Origin: Tegillarca granosa
Taxonomy: Eukaryota
Assembly (NCBI GenBank): GCA_029721355.1
Contig: CM056607.1
Span: 8,339,309 to 8,403,308 of the forward strand
Direction: 5' to 3'
Length of the DNA: 64,000 nt
Positions 34,417-57,919 of the stretch are shown here, piece after piece (the stretch's first letter is position 1; every line of letters begins with the position of its first letter). The position numbers and the translations under genes were made by a program. The notes under the pieces were generated by a model. That model saw only the letters and a program-made list of their open reading frames with translations, was not told where the DNA came from and did no database searches.

Positions 34417-34518
34417 ATTTTAAAAATAAAGAGAAAACAGTACATTATTAATTTGAGTACCCAGTATTCCATTGTGACACCATATACAAGTTTCGTAGCT
34501 ATCGAAGAAAGGTCAAAG
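34417..34518 (+). CDS. PARP4: PARP4-like exon 26
   Basis: tttttctag|ATT.. ..TCAAAG|gtcagt (donor chosen so the next exon stays in frame). ILKIKRKQYIINLSTQYSIVTPYTSFVAIEERSK ~ human TLKSLIIKLSKENSLITQFTSFVAVEKR. Confidence 0.75.
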
Positions 34519-35588
34519 GTCAGTACAACTTCCTATGAAAACATAAGAATTTATTTTTGTAAGTGTTCAAAAGTGATTCAATAAATATGCATACACTATA
34601 AACCATTGTAAATTGGCTTTTGGTTTGAAAAACCAGTGGCTAGGTGATTAAGACTGCAAATTCATACCATAATTAAAAAAGACTTGAGGTTGTATGATGT
34701 TACTTTTAGCAAGACTTTTAATCTCAAATTGCTCCAATTCATTTAACTATTAATGGGTGTCAACTTTATTTCTTGTAATTAATATTAAGATAGAATGACC
34801 TCTCATCCAAGATGGAGTCTTGTAATCTTATTTTCTTCCATCACTGAAACCATGAGTAAGCACTGAGGCCCGTTCAAGATACACTATGTATGCTTGCGAG
34901 TGCAAGTGAGTGACTGTTATCAATATTTGAAGGTTTTTCGCCTTAGATTCAAGATGGCGTCTCTCGGACAAAGTTTGTAAGAAATAGCTTAAATAAATTC
35001 TGAAACCAGCATGCATTTCAATTTATATTCAGTCCAAGGGTATGGTTTCTTTCTAGAAGGGATTTGAATGATAGGATTAGTTAAAACTTATGTACAGATG
35101 TCCGATTTAATTTATATATTGACATTTTCTCTCCCGTTGAGTGTCGGTGTCTAAATCTAGATGATTATGATTAGTCAGTACTCACCTCCATTCAATAGAC
35201 ATAAAAAATGTATTCGCAAATGCATTGGAAAGCAACCAGTAACTTGAACACACCTTTGATTGGCGAACAAGCTTATAGGCACTGGACAGACTTAATTTTA
35301 ACTGTAAATACTGTAAAACCTTTGTATTATGCTCACAATCTCTTCATATCACTAAAACTAAGGCTAAGTACTTGACTGATGAACAAGCCTATAAGCCTTA
35401 GACAGACATTATCTTTTTGTTTAACTGTGAAATTATGTAAAACCTATGTTTCGTACTCAGTCTCTCCACATACTTAACCAGAAAATACACCTGTATATTG
35501 AGCCTATAGCTGAGATGCTGACCAAAGGAAGCTTAAACTATGGGAAATTTTGAAATATAAAGAGTTGGCAAAATTGAGCTTTGTTTTT

Positions 35589-38047
35589 AGCTCACCTGAC
35601 CGAAAGGTCATGTGAGCTTATGGCATGGCGAGGCGTGTATGTGCGTGCGTGTGTGTGTGCGTGCGTGTGTGCGTACGTCGTTAACACCTATTTTCGACTT
35701 CTCCTCCAAAACTGTTGGGCAGATTTCAATGATACTTGGTCAGAAGCATATATGGGCCGGTGCAATTCAGATTTGTTCATGGCATTGCCATGGCTACCAA
35801 AACTAGATGAAGGTGACCTAGGGGTCCAAAAATCTTAAAAAATCTTCTTCTCTAAAACCGATGATGAGAGAAAAAATCTGATGTGATATTTGGCTTCTCT
35901 AGGGTCTTAAGCTTATAGTTTGTTCATTTCGTGAAATTTGGTCGAAAAATGGGTTACACGTTTTTGCGTTTAATTTTAAAAATTTCGTAAAATGGCTTCA
36001 AATTGTTATAACTTGACTATTTGAACAGATATTGACATGGGGTTTTCAGTTTTGACTTTGTCTTGAAATGACCTTTAAAATAGGGTCAAGGTCACAAATC
36101 AAGGTCATGACCTAACTTGTGATTTGTGCAGTTTTAGGCAGTTTACTTGAAAAATATTAAGAGATATATGGAATCAAAACATTGTTAAAATGTTCAGCAT
36201 GACAAAATTTAGCAAGGTACCAAGTTTTGTAACTATATGATAATTCATGTAGGAGTTGTTGCCCCTGAAATGTTATTTTTTGCTTACAAATACTAAAATT
36301 GTGCATTAGCTTGAAAGCTATAAACTTTTTGTATTAGTGTGTATATTAGAATATTGTAGGTATTGATATGATGATCATTTTGATATATGGTTCAAGGTCA
36401 TAACTGCAGAAGAAGACTGAAATTGTTAATCATCTTGAAAACTATGAACTTTTTGTATAGGCATGTATATTAAAATATTGCAAATATTTATATAACAATC
36501 ATTTTGATATATGGTTCAAGGTCATATGTTCAAAGGTCAAGGACATAGCTGTAGAAGAAGGCTGAAATTGTGAATTATCTTGAAAACTATTTGTATAGGC
36601 ATGTATATTAGAATACTGTAAATCAGGAAATTAATGCGTCATGAAATTTATGCGAATTGCCGATTTTGAAGTAAAATGCCTATCTATATTAATGTGAATT
36701 TGTTAAATTCCATTTTTTTAAAGCAGACGCTAACAGCGTCAGCTTTATTGCGATCAGGAAGGTTGACGGAAGTGTTGGATTGAGACCTCTATCGGCCAGA
36801 TTTGACTGTTTTAGCGGGACATTCAAATGTTTGATAAGGCATTTTCCACAAACACCAATATATATCTACGAGACTCTTGACAGAAATTACATAAATAAAG
36901 AGAACAGTAATAATTAAATGTATAATAATTAACAACTCAACTGGATACGTGAATAAAATTGTCGGATTTTCCACCCTCCGTTTTTTTTTTTTACATTTTC
37001 CCCACAACGATTCCCCCCTTACCTTGTGCCGTCGAACTTTTGGTACAAAGTTTCATAACTATATGATAATCCATGTAGGAGTTGTTGCCCCTGAAATGTT
37101 ACTTTTGGCTTATAAATACTAAAATTGTGCATTAGCTTGAAAACTTTAATTTTTTTTGTATAGGCATGTATATTAAAATATTGTAGGTATTGACATGATG
37201 ATCATTTTGATATATGGTACAAGGTCATATGTTGAAAGGTCAAGGTCACAGCTGCAAAAGAAGACTTAAATTGCTAATACTTTTGAAAACTAATAACTTT
37301 TTGTATAGGCATGTATATTAGAATATTGTAGGTATTGCAACAATGATCATTTTAATATATGGTACAAGGTCATATGTTGAAAGGTCAAGGTCACAGCTGC
37401 AAAAAAAGAGTTAAATTGCTAATTATCTTGAAAACTATTTATTTTTTGTATAGGTATGTATATTAGAATATTGTAGGTATTGCGACAATGATCATTTTGA
37501 TATATGGTACAAGGTCATATGTTGAAAGGTCAAGGTCACAGCTGCAAAAGAAGAGTTAAATTGCTAATTATCTTGAAAACTATTAACTTTTTGTATAGAA
37601 ATATATATTAGAATATTGTAGGTATTCGACAACAATCATTTTGATATATGGTACAAGGTCATATGCTGAAAGGTCAAGGTCACCGTTGCAAAAGAAGACT
37701 TAAATTGCTAATTATCCTGAAAACTATAAACATTTTGTACAAGCATGTTTATTAGAATATTGTACGTATTGATATTAAGACCATTTTGATATAAGGTTCA
37801 AGTTCACATGTTCAAAGGTCAAAATCATGGCTGCATAACCATATGGTTAATGATTTGGAAATTATCTATTGTACTATAGTTAAATGGTGCATATGAGCTA
37901 TTATAAATGAAATGTGACTAGAGATTTCTGATTAATTATTGCAGGATTTTCCAAAACTGAGGAATTTTGTGAACTTTTTGTATTTAAGTTCTTTGTAAGT
38001 TTTTGGATATGTCCTCAGGTGAGCGTTAAGGCCCATGGGCCTCTTGT
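35589..38047 (+). mobile_element. Helentron-like non-autonomous element copy T2 with an internal satellite array (~139-bp unit x ~6) and a nested unrelated ~430-bp insertion (36610-37040); PARP4 intron 26
   Basis: 5' end tttttAGCTCACCTGACCGAAAGG; 3' end CCTCAGGTGAGCGTTAAGGCCCATGGGCCTCTTGT|t. The subterminal AGCTCACCTG / CAGGTGAGCG are inverted repeats. A palindromic GGCCCATGGGCC hairpin sits 8 nt from the 3' end, flanked by T...T, as in Helitron2/Helentron insertions. Confidence 0.5.
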
Positions 38048-38335
38048 TAAAACATTATGATCAGTAAAAAGTTGGTCAAAGGGATTTTTGTACTGAAACA
38101 CATTTGATGAATAAAAAGCTGTTCAAATGGAGCTTTTTAATTAAATGCATTTTGATTATAAAATCTTGACCAAAATGAGTTTTTTCACTAAAACATTATA
38201 ACAAATAAAAAGTAGGCCAAAGTGAGGCTTGGATTGACCTTATTCAATCATTGCTTTTCTACTTTTAGATAAATCACTTAGATTCAAAGCAAATATGTTC
38301 TGAAATGCATTTTGCTAAATTATGTATATTTTTAG

Positions 38336-38443
38336 GATGAAGAAAAACAGGATGGACCTTCAATAGATGAATTGGTTGCCATGGAATCAGTAGATATATT
38401 ACAATACATGGGATGGGAAAATGCTGATTTATTTGCAGAAAAG
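38336..38443 (+). CDS. PARP4: PARP4-like exon 27
   Basis: tatttttag|GAT.. ..GAAAAG|gtaaat. DEEKQDGPSIDELVAMESVDILQYMGWENADLFAEK ~ human DENESPFPDIPKVSELIAKEDVDFLPYMSWQGE. Confidence 0.75.
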
Positions 38444-38815
38444 GTAAATATTTTGCATTGGCTGGTTGCAGTTTTAAGTTGAAAAAAGTTAGTTAAGAAG
38501 CAAAGAGTTTGAAACTAAATCAATCAAGTAAAAATAATATATTTTTGAGAAATAAATATACATGTAAAGACTAACTAAATAATTTGCTGTTTCATAGAAG
38601 CAATACTAAAACAATTTTTCAGTGTTAGGCCAAAATATCATGGAAGCAAAACTAGCCATTTTATCAGGAATGCATTTGTTTGACAGAGAATTTGCATTAT
38701 AAATAGTGACAAGTATGATTAGTTGTTTGTCAAAATTTTAAATAAAAGGTTGTTTGTTTAAATTTTTTCACTGCATGGTATTTGAAATCAAATGGTGTTT
38801 TTCGCTTGTTTTCAG

Positions 38816-38962
38816 GAACCATCAGAACTGGTAGAGGAACTTCTAAGAAAAGGGGCCATTGCTGAAAGCTTTTCCCAGATGGAAGCTGAAAGATGCTATG
38901 CCTCCATTTTAGATTACTTTGAAGAATTGAAAAAAGAGGAAAACAAAGATCTTAAAGATAAG
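38816..38962 (+). CDS. PARP4: PARP4-like exon 28
   Basis: ttgttttcag|GAA.. ..GATAAG|gtaaac; in frame. EPSELVEELLRKGAIAESFSQMEAERCYASILDYFEELKKEENKDLKDK. Confidence 0.6.
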
Positions 38963-39249
38963 GTAAACAACTTAGATTTATTTCCCCTGAAATTAAAGGC
39001 CAAGACAAAGCAGTTATTTGGTCATCAAAGTTGGTGTACTTGATCTTGGTTTAAGTTTTTAAAGTTAAATGCCATGTGATCCACTTATCTGTTTTCTTAT
39101 ACATTTCCTAGTCTCATATAGTTTAGGAATACATGTATTTGTATTTAACAAATGTACATGTATTTGAAAACAAAGTTTAAAAATGAGGGGATGGCTTTTA
39201 CTTGAACCTAGTTGTAACAGAAAATGACTCTCTTGGGGAAAAAAGGGAT

Positions 39250-39445
39250 CAATGGCTGAGTTGCCTAAAATACATGCTTATGGATCATTGCCTATCACTG
39301 CCTTGAGGCAAATCCCACTTAAAAAGATCCTAGTCTGAGAAAGTTTGCCAGTTCATGAAGGTTGATGGTTTTGTCCACCACCTCTGAACTGACCACCTTG
39401 ATATAAGAGAAGAAACCTTGACTAGAGGTAAAACACCATTAATCC
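39250..39445 (+). mobile_element. tRNA-derived SINE family A copy A6 (plus orientation; PARP4 intron 28)
   Basis: ggctgagttgcctaaaatacatgcttatggatcattgcc..ggcaaatcccactt..gatcctagtctgagaaagtttgccagtt..ccaccacctctgaactgac..cttgactagaggtaaaacaccatta. Confidence 0.5.
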
Positions 39446-39621
39446 TATCATATCTACCGGTATCTTAGAACAGAAAATAACATGCCTACTGTCACTGTGC
39501 TAGTTTTAATATGGTGAAACATAAAAATGCAAAGTGATGTTGTTGTTTACATATGATTCATCACCAAGACCTTTACTTCTCTTGTTTTCTGTAAGTTTAC
39601 AAATAAAAATGTTTTCTATAG

Positions 39622-39709
39622 GTATGTGATGTAGTTGAACGATTTTGTCAACAAAGTGAAACTGAAAGAAGCAAGGAACTTTGGCAGTATTTTAAAAACA
39701 CATTCCCAG
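39622..39709 (+). CDS. PARP4: PARP4-like exon 29
   Basis: ttttctatag|GTA.. ..CCCAG|gtaagt. VCDVVERFCQQSETERSKELWQYFKNTFP. Confidence 0.6.
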
Positions 39710-40275: not shown

Positions 40276-40452
40276 AACCAATAACACTGTGTGTAAAAAC
40301 ACTGTCTGGTAAAACTCTAGGTGTTGGTGCAATGAGGAACCAGACAATCCGAGATCTAAAGGACCTGATATTTGACAGGGAAGGGATACCCCCAGAAACC
40401 CAGAGACTTGTCATGGGGGGAAAACAAAGAACAGATGATGAATTAATCCAAG
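40276..40452 (+). CDS. PARP4: PARP4-like exon 30: N-terminal half of a ubiquitin-like domain
   Basis: tattacag|AA.. ..TCCAAG|gtacta. EPITLCVKTLSGKTLGVGAMRNQTIRDLKDLIFDREGIPPETQRLVMGGKQRTDDELIQ ~ ubiquitin [32 protein letters not shown]. Confidence 0.75.
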
Positions 40453-40486
40453 GTACTATATCATTTAAAAAAAGACTACTCAATTG

Positions 40487-40517
40487 TAATTTTTTTTTTT
40501 TTTTTTTTTTTTTTTTT
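40487..40517. repeat. T30 homopolymer, 35 bp after the exon-30 donor
   Basis: Direct reading. Confidence 0.95.
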
Positions 40518-40599
40518 GGTTATAAATCTTTGTCTTTGTAATCAGTAAATAAAATATCAAGAATTTCAAATTTTTGTACAGAAAAAATTATAAACTGTT

Positions 40600-43500
40600 C
40601 AATTTTTATTTAGCCACCCCCTTATCACTACAAAATACACATATCATGTGAAATACAGTTACAGCTGCTCTACAGTTAAACATGTCTAAAAGCCATACCT
40701 GTTTTAGCCATCCCCTAATCACTAAAAGATACACATATTATATGAAATACAGTTACACCTGCTCTACAGTAAAACCTGTCTAAAAGCCATACCTGTTTTA
40801 GCCATCCCCTAATCACTATAAGATACACATATTATATGAAATACAGTTACACCTGCCCTACATTAAACCTGTCTAAAAGCCATACCTGTTTTAGCCATCC
40901 CCTAATCACTATAAGATACACATATTATATGAAATACAGTTACACCTGCTCTACAGTAAAACCTGTCTAAAAGCCATACCTGTTTTAGCCATCCCCTAAT
41001 CACTATAAGATACACATATTATATGAAATACAGTTACACCTGCCCTACATTAAACCTGTCTAAAAGCCATACCTGTTTTAGCTGTCCCCTAATCACTATA
41101 AGATACACATATTATATGAAATACAGTTACACCTGCCCTACAGTAAAACCTGTCTAAAAGCCATACCTGTTTTAGCTGTCCCCTAATCACTATAAGATAC
41201 ACATATTATATGAAATACAGTTACACCTGCTCTACAGTAAAACCTGTCTAAAAGCCATACCTGTTTTAGCTGTCCCCTAATCACTATAAGATACACATAT
41301 TATATGAAATACAGTTACACCTGCTCTACAGTAAAACCTGTCTAAAAGCCATACCTGTTTTAGCCATCCCCTAATCACTATAAGATACACATATTATATG
41401 AAATACAGTTACACCTGCTCTACAGTAAAACCTGTCTAAAAGCCATACCTGTTTTAGCTGTCCCCTAATCACTATAAGATACACATATTATATGAAATAC
41501 AGTTACACCTGCCCTACAGTAAAACCTGTCTAAAAGCCATACCTGTTTTAGCCATCCCCTAATCACTAAAAGATACACATATTATATGAAATACAGTTAC
41601 ACCTGCCCTACATTAAACCTGTCTTAAAGCCATACCTGTTTTAGCCATCCCCTAATCACTATAAGATACACATATTATATGAAATACAGTTACACCTGCC
41701 CTACATTAAACCTGTCTAAAAGCCATACCTGTTTTAGCTGTCCCCTAATCACTATAAGATACACATATTATATGAAATACAGTTACACCTGCCCTACAGT
41801 AAAACCTGTCTAAAAGCCATACCTGTTTTAGCCATCCCCTAATCACTAAAAGATACACATATTATATGAAATACAGTTACACCTGCCCTACATTAAACCT
41901 GTCTAAAAGCCATACCTGTTTTAGCTATCCCCTAATCACTAAAAGATACACATATTATATGAAATACAGTTACACCTGCTCTACAGTAAAACCTGTCTAA
42001 AAGCCATACCTGTTTTAGCCATCCCCTAATCACTATAAGATACACATATTATATGAAATACAGTTACACCTGCTCTACAGTAAAACCTGTCTAAAAGCCA
42101 TACCTGTTTTAGCCATCCCCTAATCACTAAAAGATACACATATTATATGAAATACAGTTACACCTGCTCTACAGTAAAACCTGTCTAAAAGCCATACCTG
42201 TTTTAGCCATCCCCTAATCACTAAAAGATACACATATTATATGAAATACAGTTACACCTGCTCTACAGTAAAACCTGTCAAAAAGCCATACCTGTTTTAG
42301 CCATCCCCTAATCACTAAAAGATACACATATTATATGAAATACAGTTACACCTGCTCTACAGTAAAACCTGTCTAAAAGCCATACCTGTTTTAGCCATCC
42401 CCTAATCACTATAAGATACACATATTATATGAAATACAGTTACACCTGCTCTACAGTAAAACCTGTCTAAAAGCCATACCTGTTTTAGCTGTCCCCTAAT
42501 CACTATAAGATACACATATTATATGAAATACAGTTACACCTGCTCTACAGTTAAACATGTCTAAAAGCCATACCTGTTTTAGCTGTCCCCTAATCACTAA
42601 AAGATACACATATTATATGAAATACAGTTACACCTGCTCTACAGTAAAACCTGTCTAAAAGCCATACCTGTTTTAGCCATCCCCTAATCACTATAAGATA
42701 CACATATTATATGAAATACAGTTACACCTGCTCTACAGTAAAACCTGTCTAAAAGCCATACCTGTTTTAGCTGTCCCCTAATTACTAAAAGATACACATA
42801 TTATATGAAATACAGTTACACCTGCTCTACAGTAAAACCTGTCTAAAAGCCATACCTGTTTTAGCTGTCCCCTAATCACTAAAAGATACACATATTATAT
42901 GAAATACAGTTACACCTGCTGTACAGTAAAACCTGTCTAAAAGTCATACCTGTTTTAGCTGTCCCCTAATCACTAAAAGATACACATATTATATGAAATA
43001 CAGTTACACCTGCTCTACAGTAAAACCTGTCTAAAAGCCATACCTGTTTTAGCTGTCCCCTAATCACTATAAGATACACATATTATATGAAATACAGTTA
43101 CACCTGCCCTACATGAAACCTGTCTAAAAGCCATACCTGTTTTAGCCATCCCCTAATCACTATAAGATACACATATTATATGAAATACAGTTACACCTGC
43201 CCTACATTAAACCTGTCTAAAAGCCATACCTGTTTTAGCTGTCCCCTAATCACTATAAGATACACATATTATATGAAATACAGTTACACCTGCTCTACAG
43301 TAAAACCTGTCTAAAAGCCATACCTGTTTTAGCTGTCCCCTAATCACTATAAGATACACATATTATATGAAATACAGTTACACCTGCCCTACATTAAACC
43401 TGTCTAAAAGCCATACCTGTTTTAGCCATCCCCTAATCACTATAAGATACACATATTATATGAAATACAGTTACACCTGCCCTACATTAAACCTGTCTAA

Positions 43501-43975
43501 AAGCCATACCTGTTTTAGCCATCCCCTAATCACTATAAGATACACATATTATATGAAATACAGTTACACCTGCCCTACATTAAACCTGTCTAAAAGCCAT
43601 ACCTGTTTTAGCTGTCCCCTAATCACTAAAAGATACACATATTATATGAAATACAGTTACACCTGCTCTACAGTAAAACCTGTCTAAAAGCCATACCTGT
43701 TTTAGCTGTCCCCTAATCACTAAAAGATACACATATTATATGAAATACAGTTACACCTGCTCTACAGTAAAACCTGTCTAAAAGCCATACCTGTTTTAGC
43801 TGTCCCCTAATCACTAAAAGATACACATATTATATGAAATACAGTTACACCTGCTCTACAGTAAAACCTGTCTAAAAGCCATACCTGTTTTAGCTGTCCC
43901 CTAATCACTATAAGATACACATATTATATGAAATACAGTTACACCTGCCCTGTAAAACCTGTCATACAGTTGAAA
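40600..43975 (+). repeat. 93/94-bp satellite x ~36 in PARP4 intron 30 (CCATACCTGTTTTAGCYRTCCCCTAATCACTAWAAGATACACATATTATATGAAATACAGTTACACCTGCYCTACAKTAAAACCTGTCTAAAAG)
   Basis: Direct reading. Two unit subtypes (acagtaaaacc / acattaaacc) alternate. ORF 43367..43687 is a translation of it. Confidence 0.95.
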
Positions 43976-44003
43976 CTGTCTAACATCCACCCTTATATGA
44001 TAA

Positions 44004-44393
44004 ATGGGAAATTTTGAAAATAATGGAGTCAGGCTGATATACCAACAAGGAACTCTTTATGATCTAGCTTACGCACTTGATGGAAAAGTGACACCAAGTC
44101 TGGAGGATTCTGAAATAAAGACAACTATCAAAAGTCACAAGAAGAAAAGAAAGCCTAAGAGGGAACAAGAAAAATATCAGACACAATTAGCTGAATCTAG
44201 TAAGGAACAAACACCACCAAGTTCAAGGTCGCCAAGTATGCAACCAGTAAAATACCATTTATGTATCAGTGAGGAACCATTGATGGGAGACTTGGAACAA
44301 GGATTACAGGATGTTGAAATGGGAATATCAAAGACCAAGCAAACAAGCATCCAAATTCAGTCTGAAATTAAATCTCAAGGTACACATTATTTA
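44004..44393 (+). CDS. Candidate upstream exon or ORF of the HSP70-fragment gene; non-HSP70, low-complexity, K/R-rich
   Basis: Open 130 codons ending ..SQ G|gtacac, a phase-1 donor compatible with the phase-1 acceptor of exon A. Starts 30 bp after the 93-bp satellite. No recognisable homology. Confidence 0.25.
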
Positions 44394-44689
44394 TATTTAT
44401 AGTTTATATCACCTGTAACTATGGTAGCTCACCTGGAGACATCTCTGACAACAGTGAAAAAAGTACCATATACATGTATATGTAGGTGAGCTACACATTG
44501 TTATGACAGGTCTTATTTAGATGACTGTTATATATATAAGATAGCATTAAATGGAAAAGTTTTAAAATACTGTCGAAATCCAATATTTATATATGAATCT
44601 TATACTTGGCTGTATCTTTTATTTACCACCCTTTTTTGAAGTAACAAAAATATTTTATTGCCTCAGTTGAAGTAAAGTGAAGTAAAGCC

Positions 44690-44925
44690 ACATATTGTGT
44701 TTAACACCCAAATTAAGGTTTTTTCACTGATATCAAGGAGGTCAGTTCTAAAATGGTGGAGGAAACAGGAGGGTCAAAGTCTTCATCAAATGAACTGACA
44801 ACCTTTTTCACATAAGGATCTGTCTTATCAGAAGTGGACCCAGTTATTAGAGGTTCTGTGATTTATGGGCTGGTGCTTTAGACCTCTTGGCTACAAAGGT
44901 CCTGCCCCAGCCTGAGCCATGATGA
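44690..44925 (-). mobile_element. tRNA-derived SINE family A copy A4
   Basis: gtttaacacccaaattaagg..aaaatggtggaggaaacaggag..gaactgacaacctttttcacataaggatctg..ggctggtgctttagacctcttggctacaaaggtcctgcccc. Confidence 0.5.
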
Positions 44926-45318
44926 ACATCATTGTTATTGCTAGGTTTCAATGTTAGTTTTTTCAACTAAACCAAAGGCTCAGATAATTTATTGTGATGG
45001 TTTACTATCTGCAATGTTATTTATTTTATGCTATAGTTATTTATTGATGTACAAGAGATCTAGGCAATGTATTAGTATGCTGTACTTCTGATTTATCCTT
45101 TTTTTTTTTTTTTTTTTGTTACTATAGTGTTCTTCTAATCCTTATATAGAAAATCATGTTTAAAGTTACATAAAAAAAAATTAATAAATAATAAAAATAA
45201 AACAATAAAAGAAATTTGTTCAAGAAGCAAAAAGCCTAATTAAATGACCTTAAGATACAGATATTGGTTAGTTTTGACTAGTAAAACTAATTTTTATTAT
45301 CTCCTATATATGTTTCAG

Positions 45319-45750
45319 ACTTAGAAGAAGAGGACAATTTAACCAATGATGATTTTAATGCAGAGTTAAGATGGTCCGAAGCAGATCAAATTCATTGTCT
45401 TCTCTTGCTTGATGTTACACCATTATCGTTGGGTATCGAAACAGCGGGTGGCCTTATGGATGTAATAATAAAACGAAACTGTACCATACCAACCAGAAAA
45501 TCTAAAAAATATTCCACATATTGTGATTATCAGACAAAAATAGTGATAAAAATATTTGAAGGTGAACGAGCATTAACCAAAGACAATAACTATTTAGGAG
45601 AATTTGAAATCCATAATATAATGCCTGCTCCCTATGGTGAGCCCCAGATTGAAGTCACTATGGATATTGATGCAAATGGTATTCTTACTGTGTCAGCAGT
45701 CGATAAATCTACAGGAAATGGCAACAAATTGTGTATTACTAATGACAAAG
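45319..45750 (+). CDS. HSP70-family fragment, exon A: substrate-binding domain (SBD-beta); no nucleotide-binding domain found nearby
   Basis: tgtttcag|AC.. ..GACAAAG|gtaaaa. (D)[143 protein letters not shown] ~ HSPA8 [118 protein letters not shown]. Confidence 0.75.
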
Positions 45751-46133
45751 GTAAAATAAAATCTTCACTCATCAAAACTGTGTCGATTTCTGATGTATCT
45801 AATTTTATCTAATTGCCAAAAGTAGTCTAAAATTTTTTTTTTTTAAATTTCACTAGAGTTAATTAGTTCAGCTTTCCCTTTTTCAAAAGCATTTTTAAAC
45901 AGAGATTGTTTGCTATTGTTTCAACATGTTTGAAAACTCTTAAAAATGTTTCTTTTAAACTACTAATATTTATAAAGTACTGTGAATGTCATGTGAGATG
46001 GCATGCAGAGGAATACATGTTTAATTAACATTAAAGCAAAGATTTTTCTTCTGAAAACTTTTAAACTTTTCTGAACTTTGTAGCTGATGCATAATTAGTT
46101 AATTTTTTTCCAAATTCATAAGTTCTGGCATTT

Positions 46134-46138
<5 letters not shown>

Positions 46139-46204
<66 letters not shown>
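46139..46204. repeat. (CT)33 microsatellite, 30 bp upstream of HSP70-fragment exon B
   Basis: Direct reading. Confidence 0.95.
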
Positions 46205-46208
<4 letters not shown>

Positions 46209-46233
46209 GACTACTTACACTTTCTGTTTTAAG

Positions 46234-46601
46234 GTCGCCTTACCAAAGATGAGATTGAGAAAATGATTAATGATTCTGAGAAATTTTGCAAGAAAGATAA
46301 AATTTGGCAACATTGTATCAGAGAGAGACTTATATCTGCAAACAGGAAGTACACAAAAGAATCATATTTTACAGAACAAACAATGATAAATGATATAGAC
46401 ATTTTTGACACTGATGATAAAGTCGCCAAATGGTTGGAGTCAGAAAAAACAAATTTATTTACCTCTGTGGAGCCAGTATTAGATCAACATAGTGATGGTC
46501 AAAAATGCAAAACTTTATCTGACCTTTCTTTGGACAGGTCAAATGAAAAATCACTGTCTAAAGGATACAAAAATGAAACAAAGATTGAGGAAGTTGACTA
46601 A
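46234..46601 (+). CDS. HSP70-family fragment, exon B: helical lid and C-terminal tail ending in EEVD, stop TAA
   Basis: gttttaag|GT.. A phase-1 acceptor matches the exon A donor. GRLTKDEIEKMINDSEKFCKKDKIWQHCIRERLISANRKYTKESYFTEQ..KGYKNETKIEEVD* ~ HSPA8 [48 protein letters not shown]. Confidence 0.7.
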
Positions 46602-46842
46602 TTTTTCTTAAACGTTTACCTGAGAATTGACATTTTTGTAATTTTTATTCATGAAAGTATAAGAATAACAATGCTGCCAGTTCAAATTACATAAATTGTA
46701 AAGCTGAAAAAAAAATTAAAAAAAAACAACAAATCTTGTTGATTGATCACCATCATTAGCTCAAATCTAAACATTATTAATGGTGATTAATTAAGATAGA
46801 ATTACTGTAAAATCACAAATATTTGCAGGGGATTAAATTTTT

Positions 46843-48577
46843 AGCTCACCTGAGCTGAAAGCACAGATGAGCTATTGCTATCCATCTTCGTCGATCGTGT
46901 GTCGTGCGTAAACTTTTCATTTTAATCTTCTCCTCCAAAACCACTGGGCCAAATTTAATGAAACTTGGTAACCATCATGCCTGGGTGAAGCCCTTTCAGA
47001 TTTGCACAAATAAAGGAGTAATGTCCCCTTGGGGCCCCATAAGGGGGGAAAGAGTGAAAAAATTTGAAATCTTCTCCTCTGAATCTACAAGAGATATACC
47101 TTAGTTATTTCATTTATAACATCCTTATGTCATCTATTTTCAGATTTGCACAAATGGTAGCCGTGGGGCTCAAAATGGGGAAATTGTAAGGCACTGAGTG
47201 GGGAAATTACTAAAAATTATATATTTGTCACTATATCTTGAAAACTATCAACTTTTTGTATAGGCATGTATATTAGAATATTGTAGGTATTGACATGCCA
47301 ATGATTTTGATATATATTGTTCAGGGTCATACATTCAAAGGTCAAGGTCACAGCTGCAAAAGAAGACATAATTTGCTAATTATCTTGAAAACTATTAACT
47401 TTTTACAGGCATGTATATTAGAATATTGTAGGTATTGCAACAACGATCAATTTGATATATGGTTCAAAGTCATATGTTGAAAGGTCAAGGTCACAGCTGC
47501 AAAAGAAGACTTAAATTGCTATTTATCTTGAAAACTTAAACTTTTTGTATAGGCATGTATATTAGAATATTGTAGCTATTGACATGCCAATCATTTTGAT
47601 ATATGATTCAAGGTCATACGTTCAAAGGTCAAGGTCACAGCTGCAAAAGAAGACTTAAATTGCTAATTATCTTGAAAACTAATAACTTTTTGTATAGGCA
47701 TGTATATTAGAATATTGTAGCTATTGACATGCCAATCATTTTGATATATGATTCAAGGTCATACGTTCAAAGGTCAAGGTCACAGCTGCAAAAGAAGACT
47801 TAAATTGCTAATTATCTTGAAAACTAATAACTTTTTGTATAGGCATGTATATTAGAATATTGTAGGTATTGTGACAAGGATCATTTTGATATATGGTTCA
47901 AGGTCATATGTTGAAAGGGCAAAGCAGCAAAAGAAGACATAAATTGCTAATTATCTTGAAAACTATTAACTTTTTGTATAGGCATTGCCACAACGATCAT
48001 TTTGATAAATGATACAAGGTCATATGTGGAAAGGTCAAGGTCACAGCTGCAAAAGAAGACTTAAATTGCTAATTATCTTGAAAACTATTAACTTTTTGTA
48101 TAAGCATATATATTAGAATATTTTAGGTATTGACATGACAATAATTTTGATACATGGGTCAAGGTCATATGTGGAAAGGTCAAGGTCATATCAACATAGG
48201 AATACTAAAAATACTAATTATCTTGAAAGCCTTTAATTTCATGCATAGGCATGTATATTAGAATAATGTAGGTATTGACATGACAATCATATATGGTTCG
48301 AGGTCATATATGTTCAAAGGTCAAGGACATAGCTGCATAAGTATACTGAAATTGATTTATGATTTGGAAATTATTCATTGCGATACAGTAACTTCATGCA
48401 TATTATATAAGCTACTTATAAATGAAATTTGAGTGGATATATTTCTGATTAAATTTGTGGAAGTTCTTAATTTGAGAAAAATTTTCAAGTTTCTGTACTT
48501 AATACATTGTCTATTGCACTTTGCATACAATATTGGACATATCTTCAGGTGAGCGTTAAGGCCCATGGGCCTCTTGT
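46843..48577 (+). mobile_element. Helentron-like non-autonomous element copy T3 with internal satellite monomers; PARP4 intron 30
   Basis: The 5' AGCTCACCTGAGC.. and 3' ..CTTCAGGTGAGCGTTAAGGCCCATGGGCCTCTTGT termini match T2. Internal ..tgtataggcatgtatattagaatattgtaggtattgacatg..caaggtcatatgttcaaaggtcaaggtcacagctgcaaaagaagac.. monomers. Confidence 0.5.
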
Positions 48578-48894
48578 ATTATTTTTGTGGGTAAGTAAAA
48601 ACCATGAAATTAAATGTCAATGAATTTTTTTAATTACCAAGACTCCCAGTGGGATGTTTTATCATAAACCCCAAATTTTCTCCCAACAAAACTTTTTAAT
48701 TGCATAACCATAAAAACTTAAATTGGAAGAATATGAATGATTCTAAAGTTTAAAATACAAACATAGAAGCCATGGATTTTTGGGTTTCAAAATACCATGG
48801 TGACAAGAGTTATTAATAAGCTTGCAAACAAATTATTACTTTATGTCATAAATAGTAATTGTGTTAATAGTTGATTATTGTTAAATCATTTTTA

Positions 48895-51083
48895 GCTCAC
48901 CTGGCTTTAGCCAGCGTGAGCTTATGGTATGATGCGGCGTGTGTATGTGCGTGCGTGCGTGCGTGCGTCCGTAAACTTTACATTTTAATCTTCTTCTCCA
49001 AAACCACTGGGCCAAATTTGATGAAACTTGGTTACCATTATGCCTGGGTGAAGCCCTTTCAGATTTGCAAAAATGAAAGAGTTATGTCCCCTTGGGGCCC
49101 CATAAGGGGGGAAATAGTGAAAAACTTTAAAAATCTTCTCCTCTGAATGTACAAGAGATATACCTTAGTTATTTCATTTATACCATCCCTAGGTCATCTA
49201 GTTTCAGATTTGCACAAATGGTAGCCATGGGGCTCAAAATGGGGAAATTATAAGGTACTAAGTGGGAAAATTGCTTAAAATTATATATTTGTCACTATAT
49301 CTTGAAAACAATTGACTTTTTGTATAGGCATGTATATTAGAATATTGTAGGTATTGACATGACAATCATTTTAATATATGGTTCAAGGTCATATGTTGAA
49401 AGGTCAAGGTCACAGCTGCAAAAAAAAAACTTAAATTGCTTATTATCTTGAAAACAATTGACTTTTTGTATAGGCATGTAAATTAGAATATTGTAGGTAT
49501 TGTGACAAAGATCATTTTGATATATGATACAAGGTCATATGTTCAAAGGTCAAGGTCACAGCTGCAAAAGAAGACATAAATTGCTAATTATCTTGAAAAC
49601 TATGAACTTTTTGTATAGGCATGTATATTAGAATATTGTAGGTATTGACATGACAATCATTTTGATATATGGATCAAGGTCATATGTTTAAAGGTCAAGG
49701 TCACAGCTGCAAAAGAAAACTTAAATTGCTAATTATCTTGAAAACTATAAACTTTTTGTATAGGCATGTATATTAAAATATTGTAGGTATTGACATGACA
49801 ATCATTTTGATATATGGTTCAAGGTTATATGTTGAAAGGTCAAGGTCACAGCTTCAAAAAAGACTTAAAATGCTAATTATTTTGTAAACTATGAACTTTT
49901 TGTATGGGCATGTATATTAGAATATTGTAGGTATTGACATGACGATCATTTTGATATATGGTTCAAGATCATATGTTCAAAGGTCAAGGTCACAGCTTCA
50001 AAAAAGACTTAAAAGGCTAATTATCTTGTAAACTATGAACTTTTTGTATAGGCATGTATATTAGAATATTGTAGGTATTGACATGACGATCATTTTGATA
50101 TATGGATCAGGGTCATATGTTGAAAGGTCAAGGTCATAGCTGCAAAAGAAGACTTAAATTGCTAATTATCTTGAAAACTATAAACTTTTTGTATGGGCAT
50201 GTATATTAGAATATTGTAGGTATTGACATGACAATCATTTTCATGTATGGTTCAAGGTTATATGTTGAAAGGTCAAGGTCACAGCTGCAAAAAAAAAGAC
50301 TTAAATTGCTTATTATCTTGAAAACAATATTGAGTGCGGAAGGTCCTTAGGTGGTATAGATTCAAAATTGTATCCAACATGTCTGTCAGAAATCCAAGAT
50401 GGCTGCCGTTACTCTAAATAACAAAAATAAAAAAATGGCCATTTTGGGTTTATTTTTGTACTGATTTTGTTGAAATTTGAAACATAGAAAATAGATGTCG
50501 AGGGATAAAACATATATAACGGGTTTTTCCTTACGATTTTTCATTTGTGTAATAATTACGTAATATGCAAATAAGGTTTATTTTTAGCCATAATCTTTGA
50601 AAATCTTCTCTTAAAGTACGTGGCCAATTGAAAGGATATGGAAGTGTGGAAGGTCCTTGGGTGGTATAGATTCAAAATTGTATCCGACATGTCTGTCGGA
50701 AATCCAAGATGGCCGCCATAGCAAAAATCGAAAAATGGCCATTATGGGTTTATTTACATGTATATACTGATTTTGTTGAAATTTATAACATAGAAACTAG
50801 ATGTTGGGGATAAAACATATGTAATGGGTTTTTCTGTACAATTTTCCTTTTTTGCAATAATTATGTAACATGCAAATAAGGTTTATTTCAGCCTAAATCT
50901 TCTGAAAGTACATGGCCAATTGAAAGAAATTTTATGATTCATAGCGCTTGAAATAATAGAAAATAAGGATATTGCTAGTGAGTTTGTTTTATATTTTATT
51001 GATTGAATATATTTAAAAAGAAAAAGCAAAGAACAAATAAGGATGTGCCAGGTGAGCGATACAGGCCCTATTGGGCCTCTTGT
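48895..51083 (+). mobile_element. Helentron-like non-autonomous element copy T4: same termini and satellite, plus a different cargo (a ~310-bp direct duplication at 50330-50940) and a variant 3' hairpin; PARP4 intron 30
   Basis: 5' tttttAGCTCACCTGGC..; 3' ..GCCAGGTGAGCGATACAGGCCCTATTGGGCCTCTTGT|t (hairpin AGGCCCTATTGGGCCT). Confidence 0.45.
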
Positions 51084-51689
51084 TTCAAACTGTTTAAAGA
51101 ACTTGTATACATGTATTAATAAATTCTTTTTATTGAATTGGTGTGTAAAGTTATGTGTTTTTTAAGAGGGGGAAGAACAGGCCTTCACAAACACCGATTT
51201 TTGGCAAAAAATTCCGATTCAAACTTAAAAAAACTGATTGAAAAATAGCCAAATCGGCTTTTTTCTCCATAATAGTAAGACAAAATCTGATTAAAAATTC
51301 TTTAATGCCGGCTTGTTAACAATTAAAATTACTCAGGACATTGTCACGATTCACTGAACTTCCCTATTCACAGGTTTTTAAGGTCTCATTCCAAGATCCC
51401 TGTGCCTCTGAAAATATGAGCGTAAAAGAAAAGATACGGCTGATTTCTTATGTTCTGCTCCATATTTGGTCTTATTGTATTATCATGACACTTAAAAAGG
51501 CCACTGTTTAAGCTATATAACAAACGTGATGTCTTAACTTGGAGCAGTATACTTGCTTCTCCAGCTTAAAATGTGTTGGTTCCACAGTTAATATGGTATG
51601 ATAGAGCTTGTTCCAGGAATTAATATAAATTAATTCATAAATACAACAAAGCAAGCTGCTTACAAATAAATTGACTCAGGGATATTGCA

Positions 51690-51835
51690 AGCCTAGGTTT
51701 ATCAAGGCCCTTAAAAGTTATATGGCTGCCATTATTCCTTCCTGTCAGATAGTCCTGGACTGGGATCAAATCTGGAACCTCCCATGTTACTGATAAGTGC
51801 TCTACTGAATGAGCTACCCAGACCATTACACAATG
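51690..51835 (-). mobile_element. SINE family B copy (minus), 160 bp upstream of exon 31
   Basis: Reverse complement reads AATGGTCTGGGTAGCTCATTCAGTAGAGCACTTATCAGTAACATGGGAGGTTCCAGATTTGATCCCAGTCCAGGACTATCTGACAGG, matching the 9118 head. Confidence 0.5.
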
Positions 51836-51992
51836 ACTTCAATACATTGAACACTAGGATGACAAACAAACTTTGATCTGTTGATATATAACTTGATCTT
51901 TTTACAAAACCCTGATCAATATTTTTATATATCTGATGGTTTGTTTAGAGCTTTAAGAGAAATACTGTTTATTTTTCTTCTTTACTTTGTAG

Positions 51993-52054
51993 ATTTACCA
52001 GAAGATGCCACTGTTTATTTAGTGTTACGTTTACGAGGAGGACCTGGTCCCTCA
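51993..52054 (+). CDS. PARP4: PARP4-like exon 31: C-terminal half of the ubiquitin-like domain (LVLRLRGG)
   Basis: tactttgtag|AT.. ..CCCTCA|gtaagt. A phase-1 acceptor matches the phase-1 donor at 40452. DLPEDATVYLVLRLRGGPGPS ~ ubiquitin ..STLHLVLRLRGG. Confidence 0.75.
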
Positions 52055-52792: not shown

Positions 52793-55218
52793 GACAATTT
52801 GAGTATCAGATCAGATATGTCCAGTGAGTTACCAGATCAAGTTCCTGTCCAAAAGGCTAACTTAATTGGTAAAAAAATAATTGCTACAAAAGGTGCAAGA
52901 AAATCTAGTTTTGAAGAAAGTGTCCCCACCTCAAAAGATCAAGTTGTTGACCAAGATGATGTTGATATTCCTAGTGACAGTTTAGATGAAAGTGATTACT
53001 CAGAGGAAGCTGAGTGTCCCATACAACAACCTATTCCTAAAAAAGAACTCCCTAAATATGCTGCCAGAAAGTCTGCACCAATAGCCAATATTATTACTGT
53101 TGACTATTCAGATGAGGCCGAGGATGATGAAGGTGAGAGCATTATGGGAACAGAAGATTCTCCGCCAGCTTCAGAAGACTTTTCTTATGCTTTCCAGTAT
53201 GCAGATAGAAAGGATAGCTTGCTGGATGAAGGTTCTTTTTCACCAGGGTTACAAAGTTATGACAAAAAAATCGATGCAATTGACATTGAAAAAGGGAGTT
53301 TGAAAACAGGTTCAGCCAATAAGAAGGCAAAAAAATCCAAAATGTCTGATATAAATGTTTCAGCTGATATGTCACCAACAAATGGTCCTTTTGAGGATAG
53401 TTCACTACCATCACATTTATTTGGTCTTGGATCATCTTCACTGTTGGAAACAACAAATGCATTGGATATTGAGGGTGAAATAGATTTGTCAGACTTCCTG
53501 AATGGAACTGTTGCTACACCATTGTTCCAAAGTCAAGATAGTACTACTTTTAATGATGCTCTCATGAATGAATCAGAACCCCCTGCAGATGTTCCAACAC
53601 AATCATTTCAAGCATTTGAGCTAGCATCACCTATGTACCAGCAAGTATCACCATGTTATAACCCCACATCTCCATCCTATAGTCCCACATCTCCATCTTA
53701 CAGCCCCACATCACCAGCATATAACCCTGCAACTCCAGCATACAGTCTAACATCTCCAGCATACAAACCCTCTTCATCGTCCTTTGACAAGACAGGTCAT
53801 AGTGACATGCATACTCTTACAGTTCAGTCTGCTGGATTTGAACCAGAAAAAGATGAAAGACATGTATCTGATATGTATTTTGCTCCAGACTTTGATCCTG
53901 TTTTGTTACCAGCAAAGTTACCATCAAAACCAAGCAAGCATACTGCCTTTGGTTTGAGTGGATATGGGTCACTGGACCAGTCAGGGTTTGATTCTAGTGA
54001 ACTGAGTCGTCTTCATTTCCCTGGTTTCAGTTCTGAAGGATATAGCTCCCAGAGCCAGTCAAGATTTGATTCCAGTGGAACAAAAAAACCACATGCATTT
54101 GGTTTTGGGGGAAATCTTGAACTTCAAAATCAAATCCAACAATGTATACAACCACCACCACCACCACCAGTCAGAAAGAGAACAATAAGACAGACATTTA
54201 TTGATAAAGAATTGATGCAAGAAGTGGATCCTCATACTGAAGAAAATATTAACCACACATTTCAACCTCAGGTACAGCCTTCTTTACAAGACATACCTTT
54301 GCCACCAGAATCACCTCTGTGGAAATCATCAGATGAATCATACTTACATGCTCTTGACAAAAATTCAGCACATTATGATCCAAAAACCAGATTGATGATT
54401 ACTGCTGAGAGTAGATTAGTGGATACAGACAGTAGGGTCAAAGGTTTTCAGGACAGAGATCTTTCCCATAAATTTGTAATAAACAAGAGAGGTAGAGGAA
54501 GGGGAGGTAAAGTAATCAGAATGTCAGTATCAAGTGAGCAAAATGTACAAGAAAAAAGGAAGAGAGAGGGCAAACATAGGAGCCCTGATTCAGAAAGTAG
54601 ATCAAGAAATAGAAATGTGAGGCAATGGCAAGGTAGTAGAAGCTGGTCTATAAGTAGGTCTAGAAGCAGAAGTCATGGACATAGGGTAGAAAGAAGAAGG
54701 TCAAGAAGCAGAAGTCGTGAACCTAGGGTAGACAGGAGAAGTAGGTCAAGAAGCAGAAGTCATGAACCTAGGGTAGACAGGAGAAGTAGGTCTAGAAGCA
54801 GAAGTGATGGACATAGTGTAGACATGAGAACTAGGTCAAGAAGCAGAAGTCCAGAGCACAGGGATAGATGGTCAAGAAGACGGTCTAGTAGCAGAAGTCA
54901 TGAACATAGTGTAGACATGAGAACTGGGTCAAGAAGTGGAGGTTTTGGTTACCAAAGTGACAGAGGAATAGGGTTTAGAAATAGATCAAGAAGCAGAAGT
55001 TATGATCACTCTGCCACTAAAAAGAGGGGAAAAAGTAGGTCTAGAGAAAGGGGACAAAAAGATGAAGGAACCAGAAAATCAAGGAGTAGAGACAAGGATA
55101 GACAAAGACATAAAGATAGACAGTTAGCTGTTAGTCCAGAGAGACATGTTTCTTTTCTAGATGCTGCTACATCAAGAGAAAGCATGGGCAGAGATGCTAG
55201 GAAAGATGAAAATAAACA
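52793..55218 (+). CDS. PARP4: PARP4-like exon 32: 2.4-kb exon encoding an acidic/S-P-rich low-complexity region, 6 RNA-Pol-II-CTD-like YSPTSPS heptads, a PPPPPP tract and an Arg/Ser (RS) domain
   Basis: cattaacag|GAC.. Open for 808 codons. The TAA at 55220 overlaps a consensus donor ca|GTAAGT at 55219, which must be used to reach the conserved C-terminal exons. Contains [41 protein letters not shown] and [36 protein letters not shown]. Confidence 0.75.
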
Positions 55219-56287: not shown

Positions 56288-56372
56288 ATACATTGAGAAC
56301 AGTTTATGGAAGAACATAAAAATTGGCAATGAGGACAAAAACTTTAATCAGAAATTACCTGCTTTAACAGAG
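56288..56372 (+). CDS. PARP4: PARP4-like exon 33 (candidate)
   Basis: taattccag|A.. ..ACAGAG|gtatgt. Phase 2->0 links exon 32 to exon 34. QYIENSLWKNIKIGNEDKNFNQKLPALTE; similarity is weak. Confidence 0.5.
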
Positions 56373-56849
56373 GTATGTTTCCCCATCAGTTTTGTCATTG
56401 TACTTTTAGCAGTTAAACTTTATAGTTTTTGAAGCTGGACGCATTGTCTGCCCAACTTGTTAATCTTTCAAATTTTTCAACTAAAATAAAGTTTATACAT
56501 ATTCATGAACTTCTATGCAACTAAGGAGATTTTTTCTCATCAAAATTTTATAATCTGGCAGGCAACTGGGGTTAGAGCCTAATTGGGTCTTAAATACTAG
56601 TACATTACTACTGTAAACTTACTGTGTACTAAGAGGTGTTTTAGCTATGCCTCTGCCTTTGCCCCTTTTAAACACAGTAGTCTTGAAGAAATTTTGTGAA
56701 TTTTTACTGCAAATTATAAATTGTATCAAGTTTTGAATAGCAATCTTGACATGAACACAGGTCTTTCAAAACACTAACAGATCGATTATTCTTTGCAATT
56801 TTATTGTAAGCAATATATATATATATATTTTTTTTTTCACATTTTTCAG

Positions 56850-56949
56850 AACAAATATTGGGAATTGACCCCCGACCTTTGTAAGGTTTTAGGTGTGTCA
56901 TGTGATTCGATAAAGAAAATTTTACGACAACAAGGATTATACTCTTTAG
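56850..56949 (+). CDS. PARP4: PARP4-like exon 34 (MVP-binding-like C-terminal region)
   Basis: catttttcag|AAC.. ..CTTTAG|gtaagt. NKYWELTPDLCKVLGVSCDSIKKILRQQGLYSL ~ human DGFWKLTPELGLILNLNTNGLHSFLKQKGIQSLG. Confidence 0.8.
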
Positions 56950-57049
56950 GTAAGTTTAATTTTAGATGCAAGATTTCTGTAATTTTATCGAACTTTCTGA
57001 CAGCATTCTATAATGGTGGATACTTTAAATTGTTCACAAATGATCTAGT

Positions 57050-57312
57050 AGATGCCAGAAGTGAAGTTGAGTGGAGTAATGGTGTTTAACACCCCAGTCA
57101 AGATTCTTTCACTTATACCAAGGCAGTCAGTTCTGTAATGATGAAGAATCTTGAGTGCCTGAAGAAAATATCTGACCTTTGACAAGCAAACTGACAAACT
57201 ATCTCACACTAGGATCTGCCCAAATGGGTTTGAAGCTAGGCAGTGCAAGGCATTGTGATCCGTAAGTGCACACTTTAAACCTTATGTCCACCAAGTCCCT
57301 GGTAGAGGCAGG
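57050..57312 (-). mobile_element. tRNA-derived SINE family A copy A3 (PARP4 intron 34)
   Basis: gagtggagtaatggtgtttaacaccccagtcaagattctttcac..caaactgacaaactatctcacactaggatctgcccaaatgggtttgaagctaggcagtgcaaggcattgtgatccgtaagtgcacactttaaacc.. Confidence 0.6.
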
Positions 57313-57919
57313 AGGTTATATTACATTGTTTTACATTTTTCATTTCAGGTGGCTCGTTCGATAAATAGTCTGACATAAAAATATCATTTCAAGCTAATGT
57401 AATAACCTTTGATGTGTGCAACTTTTTGTCAATAAAATCTATTTAATCTTTATGCTACTAGTAAATTCAACTCTTCACTGTGTTGATATTCAAAACCAAA
57501 CCACCAATTAACTTTTATGGTTTAACAACAGCGAGTCAGTCCTCAAGAATGTTAAATTCAAGGCCAAAGAAGCCCTGCTGGAAATGACCCAAGTGGTTTA
57601 GAGATCTGCATTATGGATTACAGTGCTTCTCAATGCCTAAAATTTGAATCCAACTTGGGCATATCCCAGTGTTTAAAACCTCGTCAGTTGGCTTGCCCAA
57701 GGATCTATTATTCTGGGTATTCCAATTTCCTCCACCATTCCAGAATTGACCACCTCCATACCCATGCATAAAATTAGCACTACTCCTATTAATATCATTG
57801 GTTATTTTTTTTATTGTCACTTTGGCCAGATTACTTATTATATTTTTGTTAGTTTATTTTTTATACTTGATCTTGACCCCTTTTAGATTGTTGATATGCA
57901 TTTTATTTATTGGCCTTGA

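Follow-up and report, generated by a model that had tools for sequence, protein, structure and literature searches.

Whether a ubiquitin-like domain (UBL) can be a built-in part of the vault enzyme PARP4, whether it was acquired recently and whether it is ever cut away are questions raised by a locus of the clam Tegillarca granosa. The locus lies in a stretch of 64,000 nucleotides, here called the window (assembly GCA_029721355.1, contig CM056607.1, positions 8,339,309 to 8,403,308 of the forward strand), in which a PARP4 ortholog runs along the + strand from about 4858 to 58582 and two of its exons, 30 and 31, together encode the UBL. A first description made from the letters of the window (the sequence-only reading) had presented the UBL as an insertion into PARP4. 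In this paper we examine the gene, its relatives and the literature, and we favor, with a probability of about one half, the explanation that the UBL is an integral and old component of PARP4 that would act as a non-removable docking or degradation signal. In the part of this explanation that concerns gene structure we have high confidence.

The gene was located by tblastn with bivalve and hemichordate PARP4s and with a deposited T. granosa protein, KAJ8312382.1. Its best matches are PARP4 orthologs, with E values down to 1e-261, and its core is about 45% identical to vertebrate PARP4. The parts of the gene, with the evidence for each, are as follows (a slash marks an exon edge; L001 is an RNA contig described below).

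4858..39709, + strand: PARP4 exons 1-29, encoding BRCT, a WGR/HD-like region, PARP catalytic, VIT and vWA domains, an ITIH-like C-terminal part and a short helical (14-3-3-like remnant) segment (tblastn, Pfam)
39622-39709, + strand: exon 29, 88 nt, ending in phase 1 (tttctatag/GT ... CCCAG/gtaagt)
40276..40452, + strand: exon 30, the first 59 codons of the UBL (ubiquitin positions about 1-57), symmetric phase 1/1 (splice sites, Pfam, deposited model)
51993..52054, + strand: exon 31, the C-terminal strand and tail of the UBL (DLPEDATVYLVLRLRGG), then PGPS (splice sites, Pfam, deposited model)
52793..55218, + strand: exon 32, about 809 codons, a disordered tail with acidic stretches, starting in phase 0 (strong acceptor; L001 over 53092-55218)
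56288..58582, + strand: exons 33-35 (56288-56372, 56850-56949 and 58263-58582, the last with the TGA stop), MVP-interaction domain (spliced L001, Pfam PF26156, phmmer)

Read from the sequence, exon 30 has the acceptor ttattacag/AA and the donor CAAG/gtacta, with phase 1 at both ends, and exon 31 has the acceptor ctttgtag/AT and the donor TCA/gtaagt, ending in phase 0. The two are joined via a split GAT codon in the sole open frame, which gives PITLCVKTLSGKTLGVGAMRNQTIRDLKDLIFDREGIPPETQRLVMGGKQRTDDELIQDLPEDATVYLVLRLRGGPGPS; the halves of the UBL contributed by exon 30 and exon 31 are PITLCVKTLSGKTLGVGAMRNQTIRDLKDLIFDREGIPPETQRLVMGGKQRTDDELIQ and DLPEDATVYLVLRLRGGPGPS, respectively. This translation is exactly that of the sequence-only reading, which had claimed a complete ubiquitin domain, and the joined UBL matches Pfam PF00240 over the full profile (positions 1-72 of 72; 47.3 bits against a gathering cut-off of 25.4; E 1.7e-12). 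Inside the full model KAJ8312382.1, where the UBL occupies residues 1288-1362 of 2383 (Pfam start at 1291), the PF00240 score is 40.8 bits. The closest solved structures are those of ubiquitin (about 58 bits and E about 5e-15 per monomer), and identity to ubiquitin is 46% over the whole fold, at which level a beta-grasp fold is to be expected. Because of the PF00240 score, the best solved relative and this identity, the UBL is not a chance open reading frame (ORF). The ubiquitin surface-patch residues L8, I44 and V70 appear as L, V and V, and K48 is kept; K29 (Leu here) and K63 are lost, and two residues are deleted at ubiquitin positions 59-60. The tail reads LRLRGG and is followed by Pro, the first residue of the PGPS noted in the sequence-only reading.

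Upstream, Pfam places BRCT at residues 2-80 of KAJ8312382.1, PARP at 386-555, VIT at 615-725 and VWA at 863-1017. Exon 29 is the only sensible bridge from the phase-0 end of the exon at 38816-38962 to exon 30, and the numbers of exons 30 and 31 were reproduced when the exons were counted on our own map. Downstream, the donor of exon 32, CA/GTAAGT, removes an in-frame TAA at 55220 by splicing; this TAA was considered as the stop of the gene and rejected, since the RNA contig splices from CA/GTAAGT into three further exons. Those exons encode the MVP-interaction domain, which is present as a precomputed Pfam match (PF26156, PARP4_MVP-ID) on the RNA-derived product and for which phmmer finds counterparts at the C-terminal ends of about 40 vertebrate PARP4s (best E 9e-8); a scan with a local Pfam copy gave zero matches to it. 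The 3' untranslated region reaches at least 58732. The UBL thus lies, in frame as the sequence-only reading had claimed, between the ITIH-like body of a true PARP4 ortholog and a long disordered tail, at the far end of which stands the vault-docking MVP-interaction domain. Flanked on both sides by PARP4 domains, it is therefore not at the end of the gene, where a fusion artefact would be likely.

A separate nested gene made of the UBL exons, which the sequence-only reading had named as a finding that would overturn it, was considered and rejected. The exon 30 ORF lacks an in-frame ATG on the upstream side of the acceptor, the phases fit the PARP4 chain only, and the identical architecture is found in single ORFs of transcripts of Euglena and Diplonema and in gene models of gastropods.

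Transcript evidence comes from one RNA contig (L001; Logan, SRR27896762), whose product is 98% identical to the PARP4 tail and which aligns to the window in four blocks (53092-55218, 56288-56372, 56850-56949 and 58263-58732). The 90% cluster of this product holds KAJ8312382.1, a protein of 2383 residues described as 'hypothetical protein KUTeg_009755 [Tegillarca granosa]' with the UniRef name 'Poly [ADP-ribose] polymerase', which matches the exons of the window at 97-100% identity. The observation of the sequence-only reading is thus confirmed, while its interpretation is supported in part. As to the junction 40452^51993 on which it depended, the identical join (...KNTFPEPITLCVKTLSGK...) is in KAJ8312382.1; an RNA spanning it was not found in the RNA searches. 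The join was therefore already present in a deposited gene model, and the UBL sequences are public with the Pfam domain attached. A search with the UBL and its flanking exons returned polyubiquitins only, a result that reflects the choice of candidates by word index and is uninformative on orthologs.

Two irregularities were seen in these records. The 3' end of KAJ8312382.1 contains a mispredicted extra splice (…LELGKNIYIYIV…) where the RNA contig reads …LELGKSIKDFLWKLYLSVS and ends at the TGA at 58580-58582; the error of the deposited model relative to the RNA contig is confined to this extreme 3' end. Nucleotides 1-212 of L001 match nothing in the window and their join at 53092 lacks a splice acceptor; they are probably an assembly chimera, the alternative being an unrelated 5' exon.

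It could be argued that exons 30-31 (or 29-31) are rarely included cassette exons, or that their join is an artefact of gene prediction. No RNA contig over the junction was found, exon 30 alone or exons 29-31 together could be skipped in frame, and the 3' end of the deposited model is in error when set against the RNA contig. Against this, however, both exons have strong splice sites, their frame is open and evidently constrained (46% identity to ubiquitin, with an intact tail), the model of a unionid ortholog contains the domain, deletion included, and the UBL is present in transcript-derived ORFs of Euglena and Diplonema. We consider a cassette or an artefact very improbable.

Two observations concern the tail encoded by exon 32. 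It contains YSPTSPS heptads like those of the C-terminal domain (CTD) of RNA polymerase II (53648-53773, + strand), with a Pfam RNA_pol_Rpb1_R score of 21 bits that is barely over the cut-off, and a long Arg/Ser-rich region (54575-55123, + strand) whose length in the window is not that in the RNA contig. The heptads and the Arg/Ser-rich region are conserved in a relative of 41% identity.

Relatives and age of the domain

Two sets of homologs were used. The first consisted of the 120 best PARP4 matches, none of which is listed as longer than about 1553 residues; the second consisted of 50%-identity representatives found with the Solemya PARP4, many of 1,700-2,500 residues, of which the best 150 were scanned with a UBL profile. 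In the first set, PF00240 is present in seven proteins, all from gastropods (Littorina, Nucella, Batillaria, Aplysia, Plakobranchus, Elysia and Bulinus); these cover the query to its end, and by local phmmer their UBLs lie at residues 1077-1454. The second set added UBL-bearing PARP4s of the unionid Sinanodonta woodiana (KAL3858028.1, 2293 residues), Biomphalaria glabrata and Euglena gracilis (EG_transcript_154), of Diplonema japonicum and D. ambulator (Trinity transcripts), and seven unnamed proteins from environmental or unlabelled assemblies.

The position of the domain is constant. By Pfam, the order BRCT-PARP-VIT-vWA-UBL is the same in the clam, Sinanodonta, Euglena and Diplonema, with the UBL starting at residues 1291, 1318, 1271 and 1269, respectively, and in Sinanodonta, eight gastropods and the Euglenozoa the UBL lies about 230-280 residues past the vWA domain, as in the clam. 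Residues are shared as well. Among 20 PARP4-UBLs compared, [DE]-L-K stands at ubiquitin positions 25-27 in 16 (ubiquitin has N-V-K and NEDD8 R-I-K), and Pro follows GG in 10, that is, in the window and in 9 of the 19 others, including Euglena and D. japonicum. The UBLs of the window and Sinanodonta are 54% identical and have a 2-residue deletion in common. In a comparison of eight mollusc UBLs the window UBL is only 36-50% identical overall to the others, yet all eight agree at L69, V70, R72, L73 and R74, and seven of them keep G75 and G76. The flexible RLRGG tail is unneeded for folding and yet conserved, and is therefore under selection.

These relatives change one claim of the sequence-only reading. 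A lineage-specific insertion, which the word 'inserted' suggests, agrees less well with a UBL found at the same place, and with shared derived residues, in another bivalve, in eight gastropods and in Euglenozoa. In the view that we favor, the UBL would have belonged to the clade-5 (vault) PARPs from early on and would have been lost in vertebrates and several other lineages. Ancestry with losses is preferred to insertion because the position, [DE]-L-K, GG-Pro and the deletion of clam and unionid are all shared.

The distribution, however, is patchy. In the UBL-profile search the domain was absent from the full-length or long models of Potamilus, Saccostrea, Magallana, Lytechinus, Sycon, Nematostella and vertebrates; among the sequences brought up by the searches, no vertebrate one matched the profile, and the Ruditapes model extends beyond the equivalent point without a UBL. 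A neighbour-joining tree, which has no support values, puts the window in a bivalve clade A, together with paralogs of Mytilus coruscus, Solemya, Pinctada (A) and Ruditapes, and puts the gastropod proteins with a bivalve clade B. Intron positions also differ. The UBL of Aplysia is one exon (42357-42620 of the retrieved locus L003), and in Nucella one exon (54902-55171 of the retrieved locus L002) runs as far as the GG codons, where it meets an intron. Several environmental PARP4-UBLs are 75-78% identical to ubiquitin. All of this could be explained if bivalves, gastropods and protists had separately and recently captured a ubiquitin unit into the PARP4 tail and the similarities among their UBLs were convergent; the word 'inserted' of the sequence-only reading would in that case hold to the letter. 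Such captures would have to account for the constant position relative to vWA, for [DE]-L-K in 16/20 and for GG-Pro in 10/20 across supergroups, as well as for the common deletion of the window and the unionid; moreover, the tree that separates the window from the gastropods is the one that lacks support values. Repeated gain keeps some weight because the window and the gastropods fall in different paralog clades of that tree, but we judge it improbable.

The regions beyond the UBL gave further observations. In four gastropod PARP4s the UBL is followed by acidic motifs like the C-terminus of the ribosomal P-stalk (…EESDEDMGFGLFD…), and in Euglena PARP4 a P-stalk-like motif (Pfam Ribosomal_60s, 35.7 bits) stands just past the UBL. 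The clam tail has a weaker EIDLSDF(GF) motif, possibly at window positions 53477-53536, in which a GF indel distinguishes the RNA contig from the window. In Ptychodera, Amphiura and Pinctada (B) the PARP4 tail contains a 14-3-3-like helical segment and a peptide nearly identical to the N-terminal region of actin (…GFAG); of the 14-3-3-like segment the clam PARP4 retains only a short helical remnant, in exons 28-29.

Removable or permanent

Ubiquitin, NEDD8 and ISG15 have Gly-Gly at the mature C-terminus or before a short removable extension, and the clam UBL has neither: GG1362 is followed by Pro and 1,021 more residues in the deposited model, the 3' end of which differs from the RNA contig. 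The Pro after G76 that characterizes a non-removable fusion of the ubiquitin-fusion-degradation (UFD) type is present (RGG-P). Ub-Pro fusions are not deubiquitylated and are degraded via K29/K48 of the ubiquitin moiety, and a ubiquitin placed between two domains is a working degron too (PMC9703124). By comparison with such fusions, the UBL of PARP4 would stay attached, its native-like RLRGG tail being followed by the residue after which ubiquitin fusions go uncleaved. The retained L8, V44, V70 patch and K48 would then provide PARP4 with a permanent, genetically encoded 'mono-ubiquitin', which ubiquitin-binding proteins may read, or to which further ubiquitin may be added on K48, as happens to UFD substrates. 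Reading or extension of this kind could control the partners or the turnover of the vault PARP.

A number of points weigh against this explanation, among them the patchy distribution and the divided placement in the tree described above. A T. granosa transcript across 40452^51993 was not found in the RNA searches, the only RNA contig beginning at 53092, and the literature search found no experiment on any UBL-bearing PARP4. K29 is Leu in the window UBL, so that the strict UFD-type signal is half preserved. The MVP-interaction (MINT) domain docks PARP4 inside the cage of human vaults (PMC12280208), and access of proteasomes, shuttle factors or large ubiquitin readers may therefore be limited while the protein is bound in the vault. 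Finally, strict conservation of RLRGG is what would be expected if a protease or E1 reads the tail, which favors processing.

Processing is the alternative to which we give the most room. Residues R72, L73, R74, G75 and G76 are determinants read by deubiquitylases and E1, and the GG-Gly junction is cleaved in the NEDD8 and ISG15 precursors. If the UBL were a built-in processing site, ubiquitin-specific proteases would cut after G76 and free BRCT-PARP-VIT-vWA-UBL, its GG end now exposed, from the disordered tail and the MVP-interaction domain. PARP4 might in this way be released from vault docking, or two products might be made from each mRNA, as with ubiquitin-ribosomal protein fusions and the ubiquitin insertions of pestivirus polyproteins. 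RLRGG is the most conserved stretch of the UBL across molluscs and is kept in Euglenozoa, though the fold does not need it, and in heterobranch gastropods the GG is followed by Gly. The window and 9 other proteins of very distant lineages, on the other hand, have Pro after GG, and Ub-Pro is the classic uncleaved junction (PMC9703124). Cleavage seems to us unlikely, though not negligibly so.

The UBL could also be an in-built acceptor or allosteric partner of PARP4's own ADP-ribosyltransferase, a modification platform and not a docking signal. Other transferases ADP-ribosylate ubiquitin on Arg42, Thr66 or Gly76. R42 is kept in 7/8 mollusc UBLs, the window UBL retains T66, and the model contains the putative catalytic motifs LLMHSS (from residue 427), GIYFS (468) and LEYVIY (537), which were located by string search only and resemble the contexts of PARP1 H862, Y896 and E988. 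PARPs are linked to ubiquitin in many ways (PMC4245714, PMC10450202). The idea is pure analogy, however, and the same residues fit simple retention from ubiquitin equally well; modification of the Gly76 carboxylate, moreover, requires a free C-terminus, and the tail here is linked to Pro. A role as cis substrate would be a little less probable again than separate capture of the domain.

To return to the UBL as an integral, permanent element of PARP4, a wider version can be stated for the whole family: clade-5 PARPs would ancestrally have carried a deubiquitylase-resistant RLRGG-Pro ubiquitin between the enzyme body and the vault-docking tail, and vertebrates would have lost the module. We offer this version tentatively and think it rather doubtful in that general form.

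The large intron and other elements of the window

The two halves of the UBL are separated, as the sequence-only reading had described, by the largest intron of the gene, which is filled with repeats, a satellite among them, and holds a fragment of HSP70; the runner-up is the intron at 12579-17371. Its elements are as follows.

40453..51992, + strand: intron 30, 11,540 bp (repeat and Pfam scans)
40609-43963, in intron 30: 94-bp satellite, 35.8 copies
45291-45809, + strand, in intron 30: fragment of the HSP70 substrate-binding domain (Pfam HSP70 positions 381-504, E 2e-42)
46233-46598, + strand, in intron 30: likely HSP70 C-terminal lid ORF (GRLTKDEIEKMI…), without Pfam match
46903-50338, in intron 30: two tandem units of about 2.06 kb, each with 145-bp arrays

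The intron adjoins the 2-residue deletion in the clam UBL and is absent in both gastropod genomes checked (Nucella and Aplysia). Most simply, it would be a later gain of the bivalve lineage that was enlarged by repeats. The split of the UBL has no evident functional meaning, and the 11.5 kb are repeat filler. The HSP70 fragment ORFs are on the same strand as PARP4, with a (TC)33 microsatellite between them, and no nucleotide-binding domain was seen with them.

Elsewhere in the gene, intron 7 contains a 58-bp satellite (12540-16529, + strand; 68.9 copies, 97% matches) that begins within the 3' end of exon 7. The unit consists of the last about 36 nt of exon 7 plus the donor site (…CTGTGTCAG/GTATGT…), and the exon end, together with a donor-like GTATGT, therefore recurs about 69 times in intron 7. 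Intron 1 contains an intact-looking ORF of 361 residues (6146-7228, + strand) with the Tc1/mariner-type transposase domains DDE_3, HTH_Tnp_Tc3_2 and HTH_28. On the opposite strand, exon-sized ORFs at 61992-63459 match Pfam Piwi positions 186-278 (E 8e-18 and 4e-9), so that a Piwi/Argonaute gene stands tail-to-tail with PARP4; the ORF at 62887-63459 also crosses a short tandem repeat.

Known systems and what the domain may mean

Vertebrate PARP4 (vPARP; 1724 residues in human) has its BRCT, PARP catalytic, VIT and vWA domains arranged as in the clam protein and likewise has a C-terminal MVP-interaction domain (PMC10450202, PMC12280208), but the clam protein differs from human PARP4 in having the UBL and a tail of about 810 residues with CTD-like heptads and an Arg/Ser-rich region. 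Surveys of the PARP family list BRCT, (WGR, HD,) ART, VIT, vWA and MVPID for human PARP4 or clade 5, and the domains that they list include no UBL, as the sequence-only reading had held for the human protein (PMC2964712, PMC10450202). Perina et al. (2014) described clade-5 PARPs with appended 14-3-3 and actin domains, recorded a 'ubiquitin-related' domain in two proteins of Acanthamoeba castellanii and stressed links between PARPs and ubiquitin; the mollusc or euglenozoan UBL form and the RLRGG-Pro junction are not in that paper (PMC4245714). In our own literature search no paper was found on a mollusc or euglenozoan UBL-PARP4 or on an RLRGG-Pro junction.

The closest relatives of the clam protein are the UBL-bearing PARP4s of molluscs and Euglenozoa, known from database models and transcripts only, which share with it the domain order, a UBL at about residues 1270-1400, RLRGG, [DE]-L-K and a frequent Pro. 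They differ in what follows the UBL, which is a tail with ribosomal P-stalk-like acidic motifs in gastropods and Euglena and a CTD-like and Arg/Ser-rich tail in the clam. Ubiquitin and its natural fusions (polyubiquitin, Ub-eL40 and Ub-eS31) have L8, K48, V70 and LRLRGG in common with the clam UBL, in which I44 is conservatively exchanged for Val. In those fusions, however, ubiquitin is N-terminal and is cleaved, whereas the clam UBL is internal and has Pro after GG. In engineered Ub-Pro-reporters, UbG76V-GFP and UFD substrates the junction residue blocks removal of ubiquitin (PMC9703124), as it is predicted to do in the clam UBL; these non-removable fusions are artificial, with few natural substrates known, and K29 is absent in the clam UBL. 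From integral UBL proteins of the Rad23/ubiquilin type, which are not processed and whose L8-I44-V70 surface binds proteasomal or other ubiquitin receptors, the clam UBL differs by its internal position and its full RLRGG tail. With UBL-PARP4 a known enzyme family shows a variant, and probably ancient, architecture; the data are not new, and the system is not of a new kind.

To our knowledge, no enzyme other than PARP4 has been found in vaults, and the experimental work on it has all been done on vertebrate proteins, which have no UBL. Should the UBL prove to be a cis-ubiquitin that is ancient and non-removable, it would give a handle on the ancestral role of the vault PARP, be it recruitment of ubiquitin-binding partners, regulated turnover or self-modification. 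The UBL-bearing PARP4s would then be among the rare cases in nature of a ubiquitin fused inside a protein, and UFD-type fusions might have in them their first physiological counterparts of wide occurrence. As natural 'permanently mono-ubiquitylated' proteins, they would tie vault biology and ADP-ribosylation directly to the reading of ubiquitin.

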